Source: a virus (Duplodnaviria; Heunggongvirae; Uroviricota; Caudoviricetes). From it: a stretch of 49,446 nt of DNA. Shown here in pieces: positions 5,970 to 27,190 of this stretch (position 1 is its first letter; every line of letters begins with the position of its first letter). The position numbers and the translations under genes are program-made. The stretch is taken from the IMG/VR virus record IMGVR_UViG_2563366799_000006. The stretch is one strand, 5' to 3'. The notes beneath the pieces were generated by a model. The model was given only the letters and a program-made list of their open reading frames with translations. It was not told the origin of the DNA and searched no databases.

Positions 5970-6219
5970 GGTCTTTTCGGCTCTCGCTGCGATATCCCAG
6001 GCGGTACATTTTCACGTAGGCTTTGCCGCGAGGAATGCCGCCTGTTTTGTTGAATCTCTGCTGGGCGCGGCGATGGTGTTTTGCTTCAGGGCTGTTTGAA
6101 CCTTTCCCGCCATTCGATCGAGAACTTGGGAGTTGCATTGGCTTTTGGCGTGAATAGAATTTACGTGCCCAGCATGCTCCAAAGCCGATCATGCCTGTTT
6201 TCTTCGTATTACCTTTCAT
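5950..6219 (-). CDS. Small basic protein, first ORF downstream of the putative PL (N-like antiterminator candidate by position only)
   Basis: 89-aa ORF, GAGGGG RBS, Arg/Lys-rich; lies about 70 nt downstream of the predicted PL start. Confidence 0.4.
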   Translation of the reverse strand: MKGNTKKTGMIGFGACWARKFYSRQKPMQLPSSRSNGGKGSNSPEAKHHRRAQQRFNKTGGIPRGKAYVKMYRLGYRSESRKDLMRATQ

Positions 6220-6298
6220 CTCAATCCCCTCGTTTGCCCTTGTCGCCAGGCCAGCGGAACGTTTGAACTTGATGCGCTTAGTGTTTCTCGATGGGGTG

Positions 6299-6340
6299 AT
6301 GATAGCTAAGGCGATTTATTTTATCAATCGCTTAAACGAT
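6299..6340 (-). promoter_or_regulatory. Putative PL promoter with overlapping OL operator
   Basis: Minus strand reads TTGATA (6322-6327), 17-nt spacer, TATCAT (6299-6304); palindrome ATCGC-TTAA-ACGAT at 6327-6340 matches the OR operator consensus ATCGC-N4-GCGAT. Confidence 0.45.
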
Positions 6341-6663
6341 AATATTGTGATTTTGCCGATTATTATTTGATTTATAAAGTGATTTATTTTTGTATGAGAT
6401 GCGTGATATGCTCAAAAAAACACCAGGCGGGGATATTGATATGGGTTTAGGAATGGATATGTCACGTGATGAGCTGCTGGAAGATCGCGCTGCTTTCATG
6501 GCTGGCGAGATTGGCGGTGCAGTTGTCGAGTAGATAATCAACGGTGTGGTGATAAGTCGAGATGCGATAGTAGATAGCTTGGAGACTAAGCGTCGCGCGG
6601 TTGGAAATGTGATTCACAAAGGAGTGTTGTGGGATGTCACTGCTATGGTGAGAAAAGGAATAT

Positions 6664-6686
6664 GAAAACCGGCATAATGCCGGTTT
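6664..6686 (-). terminator. Hairpin terminator at the end of the cI operon
   Basis: Inverted repeat AACCGGCA-taa-TGCCGGTT followed by a T-rich run on the minus strand, overlapping the stop of 6685..7317. Confidence 0.45.
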
Positions 6687-7317
6687 ACTTTGATTTTTCC
6701 TGTTGGTGAAGTACTCGTGGAGTAGTTGGTTCTTGAGGTAATTGGATGATAACAGGTTGCTGCGCTACTGGTTGAACTACGGGCGGATCACTCTTCAAGG
6801 CAGAAACAAGACTAGGTAATGCAACGACAACCGCAATGATAACGCCAAAAATAGCAAGCCTAGTGGAAATACCTGATTGAATACCGCCAATCGCAGTGTT
6901 TATTCCTGTAATTTGCCCTTGTATACCTTCGAATTTGCCATTGATGGCTTTTACATCCCCATCAACGCTATCCATTTTCCCTTCAATTTTAGAAGAAATA
7001 GAGCTAATAGATGAATTGAGCGATGCCAGCTGAACGTTCATATTCTCGCGTGACAAAGCCATTTCAGCTCTAATCGAAGATGCAATGGACTCCATCTCCG
7101 CCTTATTGGCAGCTAGAAGTGCTTGCATTTCTTCACGGCTAACTGATGACATTTCATTTCCCCCATCAGTTTCATTAGCTTCATCTGTTGATTTGATAAA
7201 GTTAGTATACATTTCTTCTTTATCGACGCGTAGTCTGTTTTGAACATTGGGGTACAGGTCATCTTTATCAATGCCAGAACCGCAGTCTGGGACAGCTTTG
7301 AGAGATGGGCCCATCAC
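6685..7317 (-). CDS. Coiled-coil protein with a single C-terminal transmembrane helix (rexB/sieB position, no recognised family)
   Basis: 210-aa ORF; long heptad-like Ser/Ile/Gly-rich region then hydrophobic segment LAIFGVIIAVVVALPSLVSAL; start overlaps the stop of 7314..7700 (ATGA). Confidence 0.6.
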   Translation of the reverse strand: MMGPSLKAVPDCGSGIDKDDLYPNVQNRLRVDKEEMYTNFIKSTDEANETDGGNEMSSVSREEMQALLAANKAEMESIASSIRAEMALSRENMNVQLASLNSSISSISSKIEGKMDSVDGDVKAINGKFEGIQGQITGINTAIGGIQSGISTRLAIFGVIIAVVVALPSLVSALKSDPPVVQPVAQQPVIIQLPQEPTTPRVLHQQEKSK

Positions 7318-7700
7318 TTCCCATCCTCTCCTTGATCTTCTTTTCTTTTATTAATCAGTGTCCTGGCTTTTTTATAAGAAAAAAGCAGTACATGTGCGCA
7401 GTGATCACACGTGATTCGAAATAGTGGCATACCGCCAGGATATGTCACAGCACTATCAGTATCAGGTTTGTATTGTGCATAACTAAGTGTTTCGATCACA
7501 TGATGTTTTGGCTGATTTTCTTCTACATCAAGATCAAAGGCACCAACTACAGACCATGACTGGTTCCCGCAGATTTGGCAAGTTATTGGTTTTTTGAATG
7601 AATTTATGAAATCAATGAACTCATCCGCTGTGATAATCTCGGAGTTTGCTTCACTATGAAATAATTCCGATTTCATAATTATGATCCTTTTCTGGGCCAA
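7314..7700 (-). CDS. Zinc-ribbon-like protein (CQIC...CDHC), first gene downstream of cI (rexA position, no recognised family)
   Basis: ORF-track 128 aa; likely start is the ATG at 7674-7676 (120 aa) with AAGGA RBS; 20 bp downstream of the cI stop, same strand. Confidence 0.6.
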   Translation of the reverse strand: MAQKRIIIMKSELFHSEANSEIITADEFIDFINSFKKPITCQICGNQSWSVVGAFDLDVEENQPKHHVIETLSYAQYKPDTDSAVTYPGGMPLFRITCDHCAHVLLFSYKKARTLINKRKEDQGEDGK

Positions 7701-7720
7701 AGTAGATAAAAAGTACAGTT

Positions 7721-8404
7721 TTACAATCGGTTATACTTTATTGATTCATGAATCAATGCCTTACCCATTACGTAGAGTTGATCCTGATTACCTTCGTTAA
7801 TGTACCACTTCTCATAAGCTGAGTTATCAGACAAAACTGCCAACCTATCGCCCTGCATCTGCAAGCGCTTCACATGGAAATGTTGTCCGAAAACGAACGC
7901 ATAAACACCGTCGACCTTGAAGTTTCTTACAGAAATATCGAAAAACAATCTGTCACCAGACTGTATAGTTGGACACATGCTGTCGCCATCGACCGTCATT
8001 ACTTTTACGTCTTCCTGAGAACGATTTCCGAAGAGTGAACGAGCGTGTTCGGTTGTGAACTCAATGGCGTGTAGAACCTCAACAAACTCAGAAATCATGA
8101 AAGAACCTGGCCCCGCGCTAAATGTCAGGTCAAGTACGTCAACTCTGAATATGTTTGAGTCTTTTTTTGTCGCGGTAATGGGAGGCGGTAGCTGGCCATC
8201 GTTACGCATCGGTCCGGATCCCGTGGAAAGCCATTCAGGGCGAACATTGAGAACAGAAGCTATCTCGACCGTTTTTCTTGAGCTTGATGCACCATTTAGC
8301 AGCTTGTTAACACTTGACTGTGCCATGCCAACTGCCTTAGCTAGCTTGCCCTGTGTATAACCCGCCTCATTCATTGCGCGATCTAATCGCTCAGAAAAAC
8401 TCAT
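7721..8404 (-). CDS. cI: CI-type prophage repressor (XRE HTH + S24 LexA-like peptidase)
   Basis: 227 aa; N-terminal HTH (QGKLAKAVGMAQSSVNKL); Ala-Gly cleavage site (FSAGPG); Ser in GDSM and Lys in HVKRL; divergent from cro. Confidence 0.9.
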   Translation of the reverse strand: MSFSERLDRAMNEAGYTQGKLAKAVGMAQSSVNKLLNGASSSRKTVEIASVLNVRPEWLSTGSGPMRNDGQLPPPITATKKDSNIFRVDVLDLTFSAGPGSFMISEFVEVLHAIEFTTEHARSLFGNRSQEDVKVMTVDGDSMCPTIQSGDRLFFDISVRNFKVDGVYAFVFGQHFHVKRLQMQGDRLAVLSDNSAYEKWYINEGNQDQLYVMGKALIHESIKYNRL

Positions 8405-8437
8405 TAAAGATACCCCCTAATAACCTTCATAAATATT

Positions 8438-8506
8438 ATCGCCACAGCGATTAATAAGCAAAAAATCGCATAGGCGATTGACATTCGTTAAAGCGATAAA
8501 CATAAT
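8438..8506 (+). promoter_or_regulatory. OR operators and PR promoter
   Basis: Palindromes ATCGC-CACA-GCGAT (8438-8451) and ATCGC-ATAG-GCGAT (8466-8478); TTGACA at 8478-8483, 17-nt spacer, CATAAT at 8501-8506; AGGAG RBS and cro ATG follow. Confidence 0.6.
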
Positions 8507-8533
8507 CAACCTAAATTGATAGAAGGAGCGATT

Positions 8534-8764
8534 ATGAAAAACCCTGCTGTAGAAAAAGCGATTGCAATCGCCGGTAGTCAGAAAGAGCTAGCGAAGCGAT
8601 GTGGTAAGGCCCAATCCACGGTCTGTGACTGGTTAAATGGGAAAAAACAAATCTCCCCGATCCATGTTCCTGTTTTGGTAAAGGCAAGCGAAGGACAGAT
8701 TCAAGCTCATGAATTCCGTCCCGACCTTCCTGAATTGTTTCCGCATCCACATTCAGCCGCCTGA
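8534..8764 (+). CDS. cro: Cro-like HTH regulator (ORF track 8516..8764 uses an upstream TTG)
   Basis: ATG at 8534 with AGGAG RBS; HTH GSQKELAKRCGKAQSTVCDWLNGKK; divergent from cI. Confidence 0.75.
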   Translation: MKNPAVEKAIAIAGSQKELAKRCGKAQSTVCDWLNGKKQISPIHVPVLVKASEGQIQAHEFRPDLPELFPHPHSAA

Positions 8765-12475: not shown

Positions 12476-12690
12476 CCAAAATGTTCCTGAAGAATTATCC
12501 GCGCCAAAGCCGTGTTAAAGAGGCTCTATTTTTCCTTCTCTTTCTTATTTTAATGATTCCAATATCACCGATAGTCCTCATCTGGTTAGCAGGAGAACAG
12601 GCAGAAAAGATAGCTGAGTGGTATAGCTCCATCGTATGGGGGCCATTTAACAAACTGCACAACAAATTAAATCCGTACAGGGAGGACTAA
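12472..12690 (+). CDS. Small hydrophobic membrane protein
   Basis: GTG at 12472 overlapping the HNH stop, or ATG at 12481; hydrophobic core LFFLLFLILMIPISPIVLIWLAG. Confidence 0.45.
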   Translation: MTKMFLKNYPRQSRVKEALFFLLFLILMIPISPIVLIWLAGEQAEKIAEWYSSIVWGPFNKLHNKLNPYRED

Positions 12691-12693
12691 CCC

Positions 12694-13146
12694 ATGACAA
12701 CTAACAACCACCCGGCGCACGGTCCTGTATCACTCGATCGCCTGCACCAGATAAGCGAAATACTCAGCAACGCAGCAGCACAAAGCGACGGCGGTAATCT
12801 CGGCTATGCAATGGCTGATGCTGTGAAGGTGATTGATGGAGTTCTGGAGTCGATGGCCCGTGAGCAAGTACGCCGTGAGCATGCTACATGGTCACAGGCT
12901 ACTTTCGGCGATGTCGGTCCAGTTGGTCCGCTGAAGCACCTTTCCAAAGAAGCGCTCGAGGCGGCAGCTGAACCAAGTGACCTTACCGAATGGGCTGACA
13001 TGCAATTCCTGTTATGGGATGCGCAACGTCGTGCCGGTATCAGTGATGAGCAGATTACCCTGGCGATGGTAGAAAAGTTGGCGGTTAACAAACAGCGCGA
13101 ATGGCCTGAGCCGAAAGATGGTGAGCCGCGTCTGCACATCAAGTAG
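12694..13146 (+). CDS. Hypothetical protein, possibly MazG-like nucleotide pyrophosphohydrolase (DUF550-like)
   Basis: 150 aa; recalled resemblance to prophage dATP/dGTP pyrophosphohydrolase-domain proteins. Confidence 0.45.
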   Translation: MTTNNHPAHGPVSLDRLHQISEILSNAAAQSDGGNLGYAMADAVKVIDGVLESMAREQVRREHATWSQATFGDVGPVGPLKHLSKEALEAAAEPSDLTEWADMQFLLWDAQRRAGISDEQITLAMVEKLAVNKQREWPEPKDGEPRLHIK

Positions 13147-13199
13147 ACTCTTATGGATAATTGAACCCTAATTCATTATGAACATAATAAGGAGTCCTT

Positions 13200-13520
13200 A
13201 TGTCTTACATAATGCCTGAAAAAGGCCAAATGAATGAATATGGAATTGAGGCTTTCGGGATCCCGCTTACCAGTAGGCATGGAGTTGCGATGGAACTGTC
13301 TCAAATGCTACGTTTTTCTTACTATGTAGCTTCAGTTGGGCTTGTAAAATGTATTGAAAGTGTCTTCTATGATTCAGGCTCTTGCTGCTGTAATTTTGAA
13401 TTTATTCCCGGGTTTAATGAGTATTCGGAGGAGGCAGAAAAAATTAGACAGTGCGCGCTACGTTCGATTGGGCAATTTGAATGGTTCGGTATGATTGAAC
13501 ACGGCGACATCAACGGCTAA
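13200..13520 (+). CDS. Hypothetical protein (first gene of the AT-rich insert)
   Basis: 106 aa; GGAG RBS; own terminator downstream; AT-rich by eye. Confidence 0.5.
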   Translation: MSYIMPEKGQMNEYGIEAFGIPLTSRHGVAMELSQMLRFSYYVASVGLVKCIESVFYDSGSCCCNFEFIPGFNEYSEEAEKIRQCALRSIGQFEWFGMIEHGDING

Positions 13521-13548
13521 GTGTTTAACTCCAATAGCAAACGAATAA

Positions 13549-13573
13549 AAGCCTCTAAGTTAGAGGTTTTTTA
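13549..13573 (+). terminator. Intrinsic terminator
   Basis: Stem CCTCT / AGAGG with a 4-nt loop followed by TTTTTT. Confidence 0.55.
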
Positions 13574-13775
13574 TGTCTGAAAGGTAGCATTACCAAGTCT
13601 ATGGTTGCCTAGCTCAGTCAGGCTTGTATTTGGTTGCTTAGCAATCAACTCATGCGACATGAGCGGGATCTTTCTAATCATCATTTTCGGTAAATGATTT
13701 TGGTTGCTTGGTTGACAAAATCGAGAAAATGCGAAAATATATGGTTTACGAATTCCAAAAAAAGCGAAACTTGAA

Positions 13776-14426
13776 ATGAGCGACAACCAGTTAGCACCTT
13801 GTTGGGAATTTCAGCCTTACCTTGCTGAAAGCAATGTTCGTCAGTTGTTAGCGGAAATTGCTAATGTACTCGAGCAATTGTACTACCACAAACACACACT
13901 GGACAGTAACTGGTCCGAAGGTGTAAGGGCTTATGATTGGGTCAGAAATCATTTGATTCAAAGTGAAGGGACACTGCCGGGTCTGGAAATGGTTTCGAAG
14001 GGACTGGATTATGTGGTTGCGTTAAATAAAGTGCCGCTGCAGTTCTCCAAAGATTGCATTAATAACCCGAAGAAGAAGCATCGCCTTCTTCGAAATAGGG
14101 TGGAGCATGAGCAACTTTCATTGTTCGGTGAAACTGAAGCCGAGCAAGATATTACATGGCGGATCATCGCCGAACCATTTTTATCCGATGAAGAAGATGG
14201 CGAGCTGGAATCAACATTGCCTCGCTGGGAAGTGGCTTTAGTTGGGTTTAACGCATATGGTGCCCAGATCAGTATGGTTTCACACCAATCTACTGCTTCA
14301 GCGCCGCTTATGTCTCTTGATACCAACACTCTTCCGGATGAAGCTGAGATTGGCAAAGCCTCTCTTCGCCGCCGTAAAAAAGATCAAGATTTGGATGTGA
14401 GCAGTAATGGAACATCAAGTGAATGA
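13776..14426 (+). CDS. Hypothetical protein, upstream partner of the HTH-ImmA/IrrE metallopeptidase
   Basis: 216 aa; no motif recognised; 3' end overlaps the next gene by 20 bp. Confidence 0.6.
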   Translation: MSDNQLAPCWEFQPYLAESNVRQLLAEIANVLEQLYYHKHTLDSNWSEGVRAYDWVRNHLIQSEGTLPGLEMVSKGLDYVVALNKVPLQFSKDCINNPKKKHRLLRNRVEHEQLSLFGETEAEQDITWRIIAEPFLSDEEDGELESTLPRWEVALVGFNAYGAQISMVSHQSTASAPLMSLDTNTLPDEAEIGKASLRRRKKDQDLDVSSNGTSSE

Positions 14427-15510
14427 CTTTGCTGAGTATCGTGGGGATAAGCTCAAATTAGCCAGAATGGCTGTTGGGCTCTCCTGCGAAGAGTTAGCGG
14501 AGAAAATTGGTAAAACAAAACAATTCGTTAGCAAATTGGAAAAAGGGTTTAAACCATCAGAACAGTTGTTAGAATTAATCTCATCTGCGCTGATGATTAA
14601 ATCTGATTTCCTATTTACTGAACGAAAATATGCTTTAGAAAGCGATGTTTGCCATTTTCGGAGTAAAAAATCGAGAACCCAAACATTAACCAATAGTGTT
14701 CTGGCAAGGGCGGAGATTCTTAACATTATAATCTCTGCCGTTGAGGGAGAAATCGAGTTTCCTGATGTTTGCATACCTGAGCACCCCGGTGCTGAATTGC
14801 TGACTCCAAATGATATTGAACGTGTAGCGGAAGACTGCAGAAGAGCATGGAACTTAGGGCTGGGACCTATATCCTCAATGGTCAAACTGGCTGAGAGTTT
14901 GGGGGTTATTGTTGCTCATGTGACAGGAGTGGATGACCGCGTAGATGCTTTTACTGTTCATAACAACAGGCCAGTAATCATCCGAAATAACGTCAAAAAG
15001 AGTATATGCAGATTCCGATCAGATTTAGGTCACGAATTGGGGCACTTGGTTATGCACGAAGGTATAACCACAGGAGATAAAGTGACTGAATCGCAAGCGG
15101 ATCGTTTTTCAAGCGCGTTGCTAGTTCCTCGATTGTCCTTTATTAAAGAGTTTCCCCGTATACGAGGAAGACAGTTCGATTGGAACGCCCTAGTTGAGTT
15201 TAAGCTTCGGTGGAAGATTAGTCTTAAAATGTGCATTTACCGAGCAACAACTCTAGGCCTGCTGACGCAGGAGCAGGCAAGAACAGGTTATATGCATTTG
15301 AACTCTAAAGGATATACGAAAGTTGAACCAGGAGATGAATTTATTCGCCCGGAAGAACCGAGTATGTTAGCTGAGGCGATTGAAATGCTGGATGATGCAA
15401 CATGGATGAGCATTCTCATGAAAACTGGTTTAAGCCAGGAGTTGGTTAGGGAGTTATTCTCGGTAAACCGCCCACTGTCAAATCCAAGAAATCTACTTCA
15501 ACTGGTTTGA
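14407..15510 (+). CDS. XRE-family HTH fused to ImmA/IrrE-family (COG2856) zinc metallopeptidase
   Basis: 367 aa; N-terminal HTH (LSCEELAEKIGKTKQFVSKLEKG); HEXXH motif HELGHLVMHEG. Confidence 0.8.
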   Translation: MEHQVNDFAEYRGDKLKLARMAVGLSCEELAEKIGKTKQFVSKLEKGFKPSEQLLELISSALMIKSDFLFTERKYALESDVCHFRSKKSRTQTLTNSVLARAEILNIIISAVEGEIEFPDVCIPEHPGAELLTPNDIERVAEDCRRAWNLGLGPISSMVKLAESLGVIVAHVTGVDDRVDAFTVHNNRPVIIRNNVKKSICRFRSDLGHELGHLVMHEGITTGDKVTESQADRFSSALLVPRLSFIKEFPRIRGRQFDWNALVEFKLRWKISLKMCIYRATTLGLLTQEQARTGYMHLNSKGYTKVEPGDEFIRPEEPSMLAEAIEMLDDATWMSILMKTGLSQELVRELFSVNRPLSNPRNLLQLV

Positions 15511-15526
15511 CTCAAAGCTTGTAATA

Positions 15527-15550
15527 AACCCGCTATATGCGGGTTTTTTC
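15527..15550 (+). terminator. Intrinsic terminator
   Basis: AACCCGC-tatat-GCGGGTT followed by a T-run. Confidence 0.7.
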
Positions 15551-15754
15551 TTTCTGGTAGCGCGCTGCGGTAACGCGGTGCCACCGCCGTTCGCTGAAGC
15601 GCTGGTGCGTGCTAATTTGCCGGAACTATGCCAATCGAAACAAATAGCGGCTTAGAGTCTGAGTTTCAGGGCAGGACGTAACAAATCCTGCTACTTCAAT
15701 GACGTAGATTTAAACTTGATATAATTGGGCTCCAATCGACAAAGGAGCTATAAA

Positions 15755-15991
15755 ATGCATCACTATATATTTCCACGCAATAACGGCATAACACTGATTA
15801 AAACTGAGGAATTTATTCCTCAAGGCTCAATTTACGATATAGATGGTGGAGACCATTTGTGTATGCATGTGACGCTTAAAGATGGTACTTACGGGTATCT
15901 TCTACCTGTAGGAACCGCCTACAATCATCAATGGGTCATTGGACAAATAAACGCTGTTCGCCCAAATCCACTGGCATTTGATATCAACTAG
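15755..15991 (+). CDS. Hypothetical small protein
   Basis: ATG at 15755 with AAGGAG RBS (ORF track extends to 15725); TATAAT hexamer at 15720-15725; terminator follows. Confidence 0.5.
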   Translation: MHHYIFPRNNGITLIKTEEFIPQGSIYDIDGGDHLCMHVTLKDGTYGYLLPVGTAYNHQWVIGQINAVRPNPLAFDIN

Positions 15992-16022
15992 CCAGATATT
16001 GAGATGAATATTTGAAAACTAC

Positions 16023-16047
16023 AAAACCGCTTCGGCGGTTTTTCTTT
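16023..16047 (+). terminator. Intrinsic terminator
   Basis: AACCGC-ttcg-GCGGTT followed by a T-run. Confidence 0.65.
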
Positions 16048-16083
16048 GTATAATCCTTCTCAAAGCATTGAGGGGGATTCATC

Positions 16084-16341
16084 ATGTCTAGCCATAACAT
16101 CGCAGCAAAATCAAAAGAAGAACAGGACAAGGTGAACGTTGACCTTGCTGCTTCTGGTGTGGCGTACAAAGAACGCCTAAACATGCCAGTTATCGCTGAG
16201 CAGGTGGCCCGCGAGCAGCCAGAGAATCTTCGCGAATACTTCATGGAGCGCGTTCGTTACTACCGCGAGCAGAGCCTGACGCTGCCGAAAGCATCCGATT
16301 CGCGTTATCTGGATATGGCTGCGCAGAATGAGAAGAAGTAA
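16084..16341 (+). CDS. Hypothetical protein
   Basis: 85 aa; GAGGGGG RBS. Confidence 0.5.
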
Positions 16342-16595
16342 TGGGCTGCCTCATTGTAAGCGGAATCAAGTTTTACGTTCTGGCAGAAGGTGACTCATAT
16401 CCCGATCCGCATAATGATAATCGGTATGTCGGTGCATATGCCGTATTCCCGTTTGAGGGAAAGTGGGTTGCTCAGAAGTATTTCAGGGGAGGACGCTGGA
16501 GTGATATCACCGAACGCCGATTTAACACTGAAAACGAGGCATTCAACTTCACATACGAATACGCGTTTCTCCCGGAAAACCGCTACAAATATTAA
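16341..16595 (+). CDS. Hypothetical protein
   Basis: 84 aa; start overlaps the previous stop (TAATG). Confidence 0.5.
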   Translation: MGCLIVSGIKFYVLAEGDSYPDPHNDNRYVGAYAVFPFEGKWVAQKYFRGGRWSDITERRFNTENEAFNFTYEYAFLPENRYKY

Positions 16596-16696
16596 TCAGT
16601 TCAGCTAAAAGCAACATTTGATTTTCCATTATCAGCTGTACATAATGTCAGTGTCAGCCTGAACAACTGACAACTTGATGCGCCACGGAGAGTACC

Positions 16697-17296
16697 ATGG
16701 CGCACGAACTACAACTCATTAAGCAATCATCAGGAATCCTGATCCCCGCTACGCCGGAGACCAGCGATATTCTGCAATCAAAAATCAAACTCGGCTCCGT
16801 ACTGGTGGCTGAGTTCCGGCAGGTACGCAACCCGGCCTTTCACCGTCGTTTCTTCGCGTTACTCAATCTCGGTTTCGAATACTGGGAACCCACCGGCGGG
16901 GCGATCTCCTCCAACGAGCGCAAACTGGTAACCGGCTACGCCAAATTCCTTGCCTCATTCGCGGGAAGTGAAGCTGCACTCCTGGATGCAGCTGAGCAAT
17001 ATCTGGAGCGTATCGCTGATAAGCGCGCCGGTAGCATTAGCATCTGCAAATCCTATGATGCTTATCGTGCATGGGTGATCATCGAGTCTGGTCACTACGA
17101 CGCCATTCAGCTTCCCGACGGCACCCTTCGCAAACACCCCCGCAGCATTGCCTTCGCCAACATGGACGAAACCGAGTTCCAGCAGCTGTACAAAGCCGCG
17201 CTCGATGTTCTGTGGCGCTGGGTATTGTCCCGGGCATTCAAAGACCAGCGTGAAGCGGAAAACGCCGCCTCGCAGCTCATGAGCTTTGCGGGGTGA
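16697..17296 (+). CDS. DUF1367-like nin-region protein
   Basis: 199 aa; GGAG RBS; motif EFRQVRNPAFHRRFFALLNLGF recalled from DUF1367 prophage proteins. Confidence 0.5.
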   Translation: MAHELQLIKQSSGILIPATPETSDILQSKIKLGSVLVAEFRQVRNPAFHRRFFALLNLGFEYWEPTGGAISSNERKLVTGYAKFLASFAGSEAALLDAAEQYLERIADKRAGSISICKSYDAYRAWVIIESGHYDAIQLPDGTLRKHPRSIAFANMDETEFQQLYKAALDVLWRWVLSRAFKDQREAENAASQLMSFAG

Positions 17297-26086: not shown

Positions 26087-27190
26087 ATGGCACGCACCGT
26101 CAATGACCGCCTGCAGGACGAGACCATAGCGCATGGCCTTTATGTGACGCGCTACGGCACCGGCGTCGCCCGGCGCATGGTCGCGTTGCTGAATAGGATG
26201 GATGCTGACCTGGCCGCAAAACTGCTGGTGCTGCTGGACGGAAAGCGCGCTGATACCTATAGCGCCCGTCGTCTGGCATCGCTGCTGGCTGGCGTGCGCG
26301 ACCTGAATCAGCAGGCCTATGAACCGGTTAATGCTGCGCTGACGCGCGAACTGACGCGCTACGTTGAATATGAGACCGGGTATCAGCTGGACCTGTTCAG
26401 CAGCATCATCCCTAAACAGATCCTCAAGCATGTGCCGCTCCAGAGCATTGCGGCAGAACAGGTTTACGCCTCAGCAGTGGCGCAGCCCTTTCAGGGGCGG
26501 TTGCTGAAAGAGTGGAGTCAGAAGCTTGAATTGGATCGGCTGGACAAAATCACCAACGCTGTACGCTCCGGTTTCCTCCAGGGCGAAACGGTAGAGCAGA
26601 TTGTCCGGCGCGTAGCGGGTACGCCGCAGAGAAATCGCGAGGACGGGGTGATCAACACATCCCGTCGCGACCTGGCGGTGGTGACCCGCACCGCGGTGAA
26701 TCACATGGCCGCCACGGCGCGTCAGGAATTCGCCCAGGCAAATAGCGATATCGTGAAGGCCAAACAGTGGTCCTCAACCCTGGATACGCATACCAGCCAG
26801 TGGTGCATCATCCGCGACCGCAAACTCTATACGCTCGATGGCAAGCCGCTGGGGCATGAAATTCCCTACCTACGCGGGCCGGGAAAAATCCATTTTCTAT
26901 GCAGGTCCTGCGAAATCCTGCTCACGAAGTCGTGGGAAGAATTGCAGATAGCGTCAGGCGAGCTGAGTAGCGCCACACGCGCCTCAATGGACGGCCAAGT
27001 ACCAGCGCATACCAGCTACGCCGATTGGCTCACCCGGCAGCCATACGCGCGGCAGGAGCAGGTGCTGGGCGTTACCCGCGCCATGATACTTCGGGACGGC
27101 AAAATCACCGTGCCGGAGATGTTCAACGATGCCGGGGAGTTCCTGACCCTGGACGAACTGCGCCGCGTGGATGCATCGGCTTTTGAATAA
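26087..27190 (+). CDS. Head morphogenesis protein (minor head protein, SPP1 gp7-like)
   Basis: 367 aa; follows the portal gene. Confidence 0.6.
   Translation: MARTVNDRLQDETIAHGLYVTRYGTGVARRMVALLNRMDADLAAKLLVLLDGKRADTYSARRLASLLAGVRDLNQQAYEPVNAALTRELTRYVEYETGYQLDLFSSIIPKQILKHVPLQSIAAEQVYASAVAQPFQGRLLKEWSQKLELDRLDKITNAVRSGFLQGETVEQIVRRVAGTPQRNREDGVINTSRRDLAVVTRTAVNHMAATARQEFAQANSDIVKAKQWSSTLDTHTSQWCIIRDRKLYTLDGKPLGHEIPYLRGPGKIHFLCRSCEILLTKSWEELQIASGELSSATRASMDGQVPAHTSYADWLTRQPYARQEQVLGVTRAMILRDGKITVPEMFNDAGEFLTLDELRRVDASAFE

Follow-up and report, generated by a model that had tools for sequence, protein, structure and literature searches.

A probable RosmerTA-type toxin-antitoxin cassette in the nin region of a lambdoid prophage, with a clamp-binding-like motif in its candidate toxin

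Gene content and composition of the locus

The virus record IMGVR_UViG_2563366799_000006 (Caudoviricetes), a stretch of 49,446 nucleotides (nt) analyzed here at its full length and referred to as the window, carries within the nin region of a lambdoid prophage a block rich in A and T that contains three open reading frames (ORFs), located at 13200..13520 (106 amino acids, aa), 13776..14426 (216 aa) and 14407..15510 (367 aa). The second and third overlap by 20 nt and, together with their leader and terminator, very probably constitute a self-contained RosmerTA-type toxin-antitoxin (TA) and anti-phage cassette (13709-15556), present as a moron of the prophage, an extra block of genes that drives its own expression. 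We refer to the two genes as rmrT (candidate toxin) and rmrA (candidate antitoxin). The features of the cassette are as follows.

13709..13769, + strand: conserved cassette leader, with a putative promoter and a putative RmrA operator region
13776..14426, + strand: rmrT, toxin candidate of 216 aa (PADLOC RmrT family PDLC03929)
14112..14126, + strand: QLSLF codons (CAA CTT TCA TTG TTC) of RmrT Q113-F117, a pentapeptide resembling β-sliding-clamp-binding motifs
14407..15510, + strand: rmrA, antitoxin candidate of 367 aa (PADLOC RmrA PDLC03943)
14452-14592 and 14932-15246, + strand: Pfam domains of RmrA, an XRE helix-turn-helix (HTH) and an M78/ImmA-IrrE zinc peptidase, in a protein with a helical C-terminal region
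15031..15045, + strand: HELGH, the HEXXH zinc site of RmrA (H209-H213)
15526..15556, + strand: intrinsic terminator closing the operon, with a hairpin at 15526-15546 of 8 pairs (5 G-C) followed by a T-run

A first-pass annotation of this DNA had described the block as visibly AT-rich, and the computed composition agrees: the G+C content (GC) is 0.424 for 13147-15550 versus 0.521 for the whole window, 0.551 for the left flank and 0.531 for the right flank. The 1842-nt core cassette falls among the lowest 4.5% of equal-length windows, and GC at third codon positions is 0.39-0.43 in the genes of the block as opposed to 0.51-0.64 in adjacent genes. The AT-richness runs past the cassette to about 16083. 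An 88-aa ORF at 15725-15991, itself AT-rich (GC 0.40) and matching phrog_30079, prolongs the stretch; in phage mEp237, an annotated promoter precedes the position homologous to this ORF.

The individual signals reported in the same annotation are likewise present in the sequence. The gene at 13200..13520 is followed by a hairpin and a U-run at 13547-13571 (RNA fold -12.5 kcal/mol, z -3.4), and the overlapping gene pair ends at the hairpin of 15526-15546 with its U-run (RNA fold -13.0 kcal/mol, z -2.9). The TTGACA hexamer, three copies of TGGTTGCYT and the palindrome TTGCT-T-AGCAA are also found upstream of the pair.

Assignment of the gene pair to the RosmerTA family

RosmerTA was described as a zinc-peptidase antitoxin paired with a toxin without assigned function, and the system with rmrA deleted could not be transformed (Millman et al. 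2022). The 367-aa protein of the window combines, as the first-pass annotation had proposed, an XRE HTH with an ImmA/IrrE-type zinc peptidase: Pfam identifies HTH_3 at residues 16-62 and Peptidase_M78, which contains the HELGH site, at residues 176-280. It matches the PADLOC RmrA model PDLC03943 (E 8.2e-107) and 13 more RmrA models, and it is 29% identical over 301 residues (E 3e-35) to the experimentally verified RmrA of Escherichia coli OLC-716. The zinc site is intact in this comparison, with H209-E-L-G-H213, the downstream E228 and D232 invariant between the two proteins, while across 46 RmrA homologues the residues H209, E210, G212, H213, H217 and E228 are invariant.

An AlphaFold2 model of RmrA is confident, with a predicted local distance difference test (pLDDT) of 87.6 and a predicted template modeling score of 0.85. 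In structure comparisons of this predicted model, the HTH resembles those of SinR, the 434 repressor, CapH and DdrO, and the nearest solved folds of the peptidase domain are CapP (E 1.7e-5) and IrrE/PprI. CapP and IrrE/PprI are proteases that cut XRE repressors, and they are activated by single-stranded DNA or DNA damage; this kinship hints at a possible trigger for RmrA without proving one. The RmrA profile also matched PDB entry 9vzy_A, a 393-aa "HTH cro/C1-type domain-containing protein", over the peptidase domain (E 3e-5). The entry could not be traced to any paper in the literature searched, and it may be the first RmrA-like structure.

The 216-aa partner had been reported as carrying no recognizable motif. 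This holds for Pfam, which has no family for the window RmrT nor for its 60 aligned relatives, whereas PADLOC assigns the protein to RmrT over almost its full length (PDLC03929, E 2.4e-26). All 60 aligned relatives match the same model. In total, 79 relatives, all about 200 aa, were found among 1.8 billion representatives, and the 60-member family shows about 20-25% identity. A search of PDB sequences with the RmrT profile returned nothing below E 0.77. Kinship between the window RmrT and the verified RmrT of OLC-716 was considered and rejected, with an hhalign probability of 0.15%; the two proteins belong to different PADLOC models (PDLC03929 and PDLC03935).

Gene order agrees with the assignment: in all 14 cassette-bearing loci examined, the gene for an RmrA homologue comes immediately after rmrT, in the same orientation. 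By analogy with other Rosmer members, for which both activities are known, RmrT would be toxic and RmrA would neutralize it.

Mobility and distribution of the cassette

Copies of the core cassette (13709–15510), with the toxin gene first and the antitoxin gene second, are found at differing variable sites of prophages in at least six genera, and also between insertion sequence elements and in defence islands. At about 99% identity, the block is present in five E. coli genomes together with the 106-aa gene and a methyltransferase remnant, and about 270 more E. coli records match 13709-15510 only, at about 80% identity; the two of these that were inspected are Rac-like prophages with hokD upstream of the cassette. 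A near-identity DNA search of a phage collection recovered the flanks and not the cassette. A second RmrTA subfamily of E. coli prophages (locus L019, 3364-5122), whose RmrT is 41% and RmrA 58% identical to those of the window, was found on at least 1000 contigs.

In distant copies, the toxin gene is always directly upstream of the antitoxin gene and overlaps it, and the surroundings change. For instance, the Xenorhabdus cassette precedes ninB, those of Serratia and Limnobaculum lie between Q and the holin gene, the Yersinia copy adjoins invertase and tail-fibre genes, and the Pseudomonas copy has insertion sequence elements on its flanks. Other neighbors are defence genes: the Alteromonas cassette (L022) adjoins a GAPS4 pair (L022 4553-6611), and in the L015 prophage a 624-aa NACHT/NB-ARC gene (L015 7049-8923) lies directly 3' of rmrA. 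Separately, a gene resembling the Acb2/Tad1 hairpin is located near the lysis genes in cassette-bearing locus L016 (8273-8509), and ParE/Phd and HicAB pairs occur 3' of Q in the Xenorhabdus prophage L005 (9449-11355).

With both genes matching RosmerTA models and the pair mobile across sites and genera, the earlier proposal of a horizontally acquired toxin/immunity-like or defence-like module is supported.

The cassette leader

The conserved leader consists of a direct repeat in two units, TGGTTGAC-N15-CGAAA and TGGTTTAC-N15-CGAAA, set 33 nt apart, with a TTGACA -35-like hexamer (13712-13717) inside the first unit. In an alignment of nine loci, similarity begins exactly at GGTTGAC (window 13710), and the sequences upstream are unrelated. 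In the second E. coli subfamily (L019), the leader keeps the same layout of two units spaced by 33 nt, with TAAAGAT replacing GCGAAA in both. This concerted change of the second box suggests that the HTH of the matching RmrA recognizes the two boxes, that they belong to tandem promoters, or that they do both. Conservation points to the leader as a putative promoter.

The repeats singled out by the first-pass annotation lie elsewhere. TGGTTGCYT occurs at 13602, 13631 and 13701, and its window total of 5, against 1.0 expected, was reached in 0 of 100 shuffles; the palindrome TTGCT-T-AGCAA is at 13634-13644. This junction (13602..13709) is upstream of the start of homology and is not conserved in 8 other loci; its repeats have a TGGTTG core in common with the conserved leader boxes. 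Of the regulatory signals ascribed to the block, TTGACA belongs to the conserved leader, and the TGGTTGCYT repeats and the palindrome are outside the conserved cassette. An Rfam search of 12600-16700 gave nothing credible.

Prophage context and junctions

The features surrounding the cassette are listed below.

12848..15555, no strand assigned: mosaic segment relative to the E. coli H6 prophage, running from the DUF550/PF04447 gene (its C-terminal two-thirds) through the 106-aa ORF and rmrTA to the terminator
13200..13520, + strand: Cys-rich ORF of 106 aa (phrog_29216), a neighbor of the cassette outside its core
13547..13571, + strand: intrinsic terminator closing the 106-aa gene, a hairpin (inverted repeat) with a U-run
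13602..13709, + strand: lineage-specific junction with three TGGTTGCYT copies and the TTGCTTAGCAA palindrome
15556..15655, + strand: 3' remnant of a Dcm-like methyltransferase at the right recombination junction, 99.6% identical to the 3' end of the H6 gene

Comparison by blastn with the E. coli H6 prophage (L018) delimits the block. The two sequences are collinear at 99.7% identity up to 12847 and collinearity resumes at 15556 at 95.4%; between these junctions the H6 prophage carries other genes, namely two small hypothetical genes and an intact 662-aa Dcm-like DNA cytosine methyltransferase (L018 3112-5100). Phage mEp237, too, has a methyltransferase gene whose 3' end is matched by the remnant in the window; in L001 and L002 the remnant is annotated as incomplete. 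The collinearity with H6 and the remnant indicate that the block arrived by replacement at a nin-region hotspot, and since H6 has an intact methylase at the same place, rmrTA and the methylase appear to be interchangeable occupants of a single slot in the nin region. No exact empty site, with the two flanks directly joined, was found; what is seen instead is allelic replacement relative to H6. At the left junction, the DUF550/PF04447 (dATP/dGTP pyrophosphohydrolase) gene at 12694-13146 is chimeric, with its first ~154 nt common with a 108-aa H6 gene, and the part coding for the PF04447 domain starts shortly after the junction at 12847.

The 106-aa ORF matches phrog_29216 (E 1e-75), has its own ribosome-binding site and terminator, and yielded no Pfam or PADLOC match. 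It is joined to rmrT only in the lineage of >90% identity (E. coli, Klebsiella oxytoca and Citrobacter) and is missing from the cassette copies L003, L005, L006, L009, L012, L013, L015 and L016. The first-pass annotation had placed it, as a stand-alone gene, within the inserted block; we regard it as no more than a lineage-specific neighbor.

The prophage encodes its own CI-type repressor, composed of an HTH and an S24 peptidase, on the minus strand at 7721-8404, with a Cro/YdaS-like gene beside it, within 7721-8764. Strong AT-richness is found in one other part of the window, 6100-8700 (GC about 0.41-0.42); this stretch covers the immunity region and also holds two unannotated minus-strand ORFs, 6685-7317 and 7314-7700.

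A clamp-binding-like motif in RmrT

Bacterial β-clamp-binding motifs are reportedly of two forms, a QL[SD]LF pentapeptide and a QLxLx[LF] hexapeptide. The window RmrT contains an exact QLSLF in an acidic loop, within the peptide VEHEQLSLFGETE, and pLDDT values of 45-47 over residues 101-123 predict this loop to be disordered. A canonical motif is thus located in a segment that, with pLDDT <50, is predicted to be flexible and exposed, as would be expected of a clamp-binding protein.

Conservation was scored at the aligned position with the pattern Q-x-x-[LIMF]-[FL] or Q-x-x-[LIMF]-x-[FLY]. A clamp-like motif is present at the aligned site in 51 of the 60 members of the RmrT family, versus 1.5 expected from shuffles. 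The variants include QLSLPL, QLELGF, QLNLSF, QLGLLF and QLALLF; the Alteromonas RmrT reads QLALLF and that of Pseudomonas QASLL, and the RmrT of the second E. coli subfamily (L019) also has QLSLF. Similarly, in the sequence-unrelated family of the verified RmrT, clamp-like motifs were found in a variable acidic loop in 22/22 members (3.2 expected). The OLC-716 RmrT itself carries the tandem hexapeptides QGELIL and QLKLDL at residues 134-148 (sequence from the Millman supplement), while distant members of its family carry a single NLDLF and one carries QGDLF.

There is one experimental precedent for such an interaction. Pneumococcal RipA, a Rosmer toxin, binds the sliding clamp DnaN, and suppressor mutations map to the hydrophobic pocket of the clamp (PMC12795458). 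The paper contains no mention of the word "motif", and in the literature searched it is the sole one connecting Rosmer with the clamp. With RipA as sole precedent, we predict that the window RmrT binds the DnaN pocket. That it poisons the clamp through its QLSLF-type motif is a serious possibility which we rate a little below an even chance, and the broader proposal that clamp poisoning via a canonical motif is common to at least two sequence-unrelated RmrT families (PDLC03929 and PDLC03935) is slightly more tentative.

Elsewhere in the window, a 367-aa ORF at 26087-27190 has QLDLF (motif at 26384), another exact clamp pentapeptide that is probably there by chance; a single occurrence is accordingly weak evidence unless accompanied by conservation at the family level. 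A homologue of HolE (DNA polymerase III theta, PF06440, E 5e-35) is encoded at 16084-16341, two genes downstream of the candidate toxin. HolE and a predicted clamp-binding toxin would both touch the replisome, and their proximity may be a coincidence.

Comparison with known systems

The closest verified counterpart is the RosmerTA of OLC-716, which shares with the window cassette two overlapping genes with the toxin first, an antitoxin of ~370 aa that combines an XRE HTH with an M78 peptidase (HEXXH) and is helical in its C-terminal region, and a conserved clamp-binding-like loop motif in the toxin. The toxin sequences are, however, unrelated, and only the OLC-716 system has been phage-tested. 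Vmi480/Vmi470 of the Vibrio mimicus element MGIVmi1 has a similar layout, with a 198-aa toxin gene followed by that of a 362-aa HTH and zinc-peptidase antitoxin; Vmi480 is lethal in E. coli and Vmi470 neutralizes it (PMC4671572). RipAB (Spr1630/Spr1629) of Streptococcus pneumoniae also has an antitoxin in which an ImmA-like metalloprotease is joined to an XRE HTH, along with the toxin that targets DnaN, but it is chromosomal, belongs to a Gram-positive host, depends on ClpX and induces competence (PMC12795458). A further Rosmer-like TA system, from E. coli E101, is prophage-borne and makes clpP essential. In our reading of the alignment, the T46S suppressor in its E101_02645 protein seems more readily matched to the STT motif conserved in the OLC-716-type family than to the family of the window.

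Other systems resemble the cassette in part. ImmR/ImmA of ICEBs1, DdrO/IrrE of Deinococcus and CapH/CapP of the cyclic oligonucleotide-based anti-phage signaling system (CBASS) likewise join an M78/COG2856 protease with an XRE HTH; in these, protease and repressor are separate proteins forming a transcriptional switch without a toxin, whereas in the window they are fused and paired with one. PD-λ-2, a phage-defence system (Vassallo et al. 2022), has an Xre-HTH fused to a C-terminal ImmA/IrrE peptidase, yet it is a three-gene system, with a HigB-like partner and a third gene that resembles the P4 antitoxin, and its Xre-peptidase is itself toxic. SocAB of Caulobacter crescentus, in the summary of it given in PMC12795458, provides a toxin that poisons the β-clamp with ClpXP in its control; it has no sequence or structural kinship with the cassette, and SocA is a ClpXP adaptor rather than an HTH-protease.

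Proposed mechanism and alternative explanations

In the model that we propose, the operon would be transcribed in the lysogen from its own leader, and the XRE HTH of RmrA would probably bind the boxes spaced by 33 nt and autoregulate expression. RmrA would restrain RmrT, by analogy with the rmrA requirement of OLC-716, with Vmi470/Vmi480 and with RipB/RipA; this restraint may run through the M78 protease, and ClpXP may assist, as reported for two related systems. Phage infection would then disable the control that RmrA exerts on RmrT, and either the cell or the phage replication that depends on the clamp could be arrested, a final step that we hold with somewhat less than even confidence.

Several points count against this model. 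No experimentally studied member was found in the RmrT family of the window, the verified RmrT being of a different family, and the defence activity of the cassette is extrapolated from other Rosmer systems. RipA, Vmi480 and E101_02645 (WP_001179380.1) were compared with the window RmrT through their published descriptions. The clamp motif was noticed post hoc, and the permissive pattern used for it matches ~30% of shuffled full-length sequences somewhere. The Rosmer toxin of Gordonia phage Kita depolarizes membranes, which indicates that the mechanism is not uniform among RmrT families. Finally, a promoter scan made no call at the conserved leader, because its -10 is weak.

The cassette might instead be a plain addiction or stabilization TA module of the prophage with no anti-phage role. 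The layout is that of a type II TA system, the hokD toxin gene adjoins the cassette in many E. coli prophages, and Vmi480/470 and RipAB were described as TA systems without a defence phenotype; moreover, an anti-phage role for the RmrT family of the window would be carried over from other Rosmer systems. We nevertheless consider this unlikely, given that two other Rosmer systems defend against phages, that the cassette occupies classic prophage moron and defence hotspots next to NACHT and GAPS4 genes, and that post-segregational killing is of little use to a prophage integrated in single copy. Far less probable is the scenario that the first-pass annotation had raised against its own proposal, in which the HTH-peptidase is a conventional ImmR/ImmA-like induction regulator and the upstream gene a phage function under its control. 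In its favor, the HTH-peptidase shares its protease family with ImmA, IrrE and CapP, and an XRE HTH accompanies the protease. However, the prophage already possesses its CI-type repressor and Cro/YdaS-like gene at 7721-8764, so RmrA is not its induction switch; the cassette is located in the nin region, and its shifts between nin, Q-holin and non-phage positions are not tied to any immunity region; and HTH and protease are fused in a protein that RmrA models match far better than capP/capH models. The separate repressor in effect removes this scenario.

Other alternatives concern the action of the toxin. The Q-x-x-L-(x)-F loop motif may represent a site on RmrT at which RmrA, or a ClpX adaptor, recognizes or cleaves the protein, rather than one that binds the clamp. 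This would account for a motif common to unrelated toxin families with homologous RmrA partners, and it agrees with RmrA being the sole partner shared by the two families, with the cleavage of substrates at specific sites by M78 proteases such as ImmA and IrrE, and with the dependence of related systems on ClpX or ClpP for control. Against it, the canonical clamp penta- and hexapeptides are matched, including exact QLSLF and QLSLPL, and one Rosmer toxin is already known to bind the clamp pocket. We judge it improbable as a replacement for clamp binding, and the two functions of the motif are not mutually exclusive. Slightly less probable again is that RmrT kills as an enzyme, by catalysis and not by clamp binding; it might, for instance, be a nuclease built on a restriction-endonuclease-like core, yet a search for the PD-(D/E)xK nuclease fold in RmrT yielded no significant structural match with a conserved D...(D/E)xK triad.

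Implications for RosmerTA biology

The cassette represents an uncharacterized member of the known RosmerTA family. As an annotation the finding is ordinary: both genes are picked up by the models of standard defence finders, and these proteins are found on over 1000 public contigs; the new part is the hypothesis drawn from the clamp motif. RosmerTA is widespread, yet the killing mode of its toxins is known for few members. The occurrence of the motif in two unrelated E. coli RmrT families, together with the RipA-DnaN precedent, offers a concrete and directly testable hypothesis for the target, and the conserved two-box leader provides a defined operator candidate for autoregulation by RmrA. 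If the clamp hypothesis is true, enterobacterial prophage RosmerTA would defend by blocking DnaN-dependent replication, and the exposed motif loop of RmrT would be a control point for RmrA or ClpXP.

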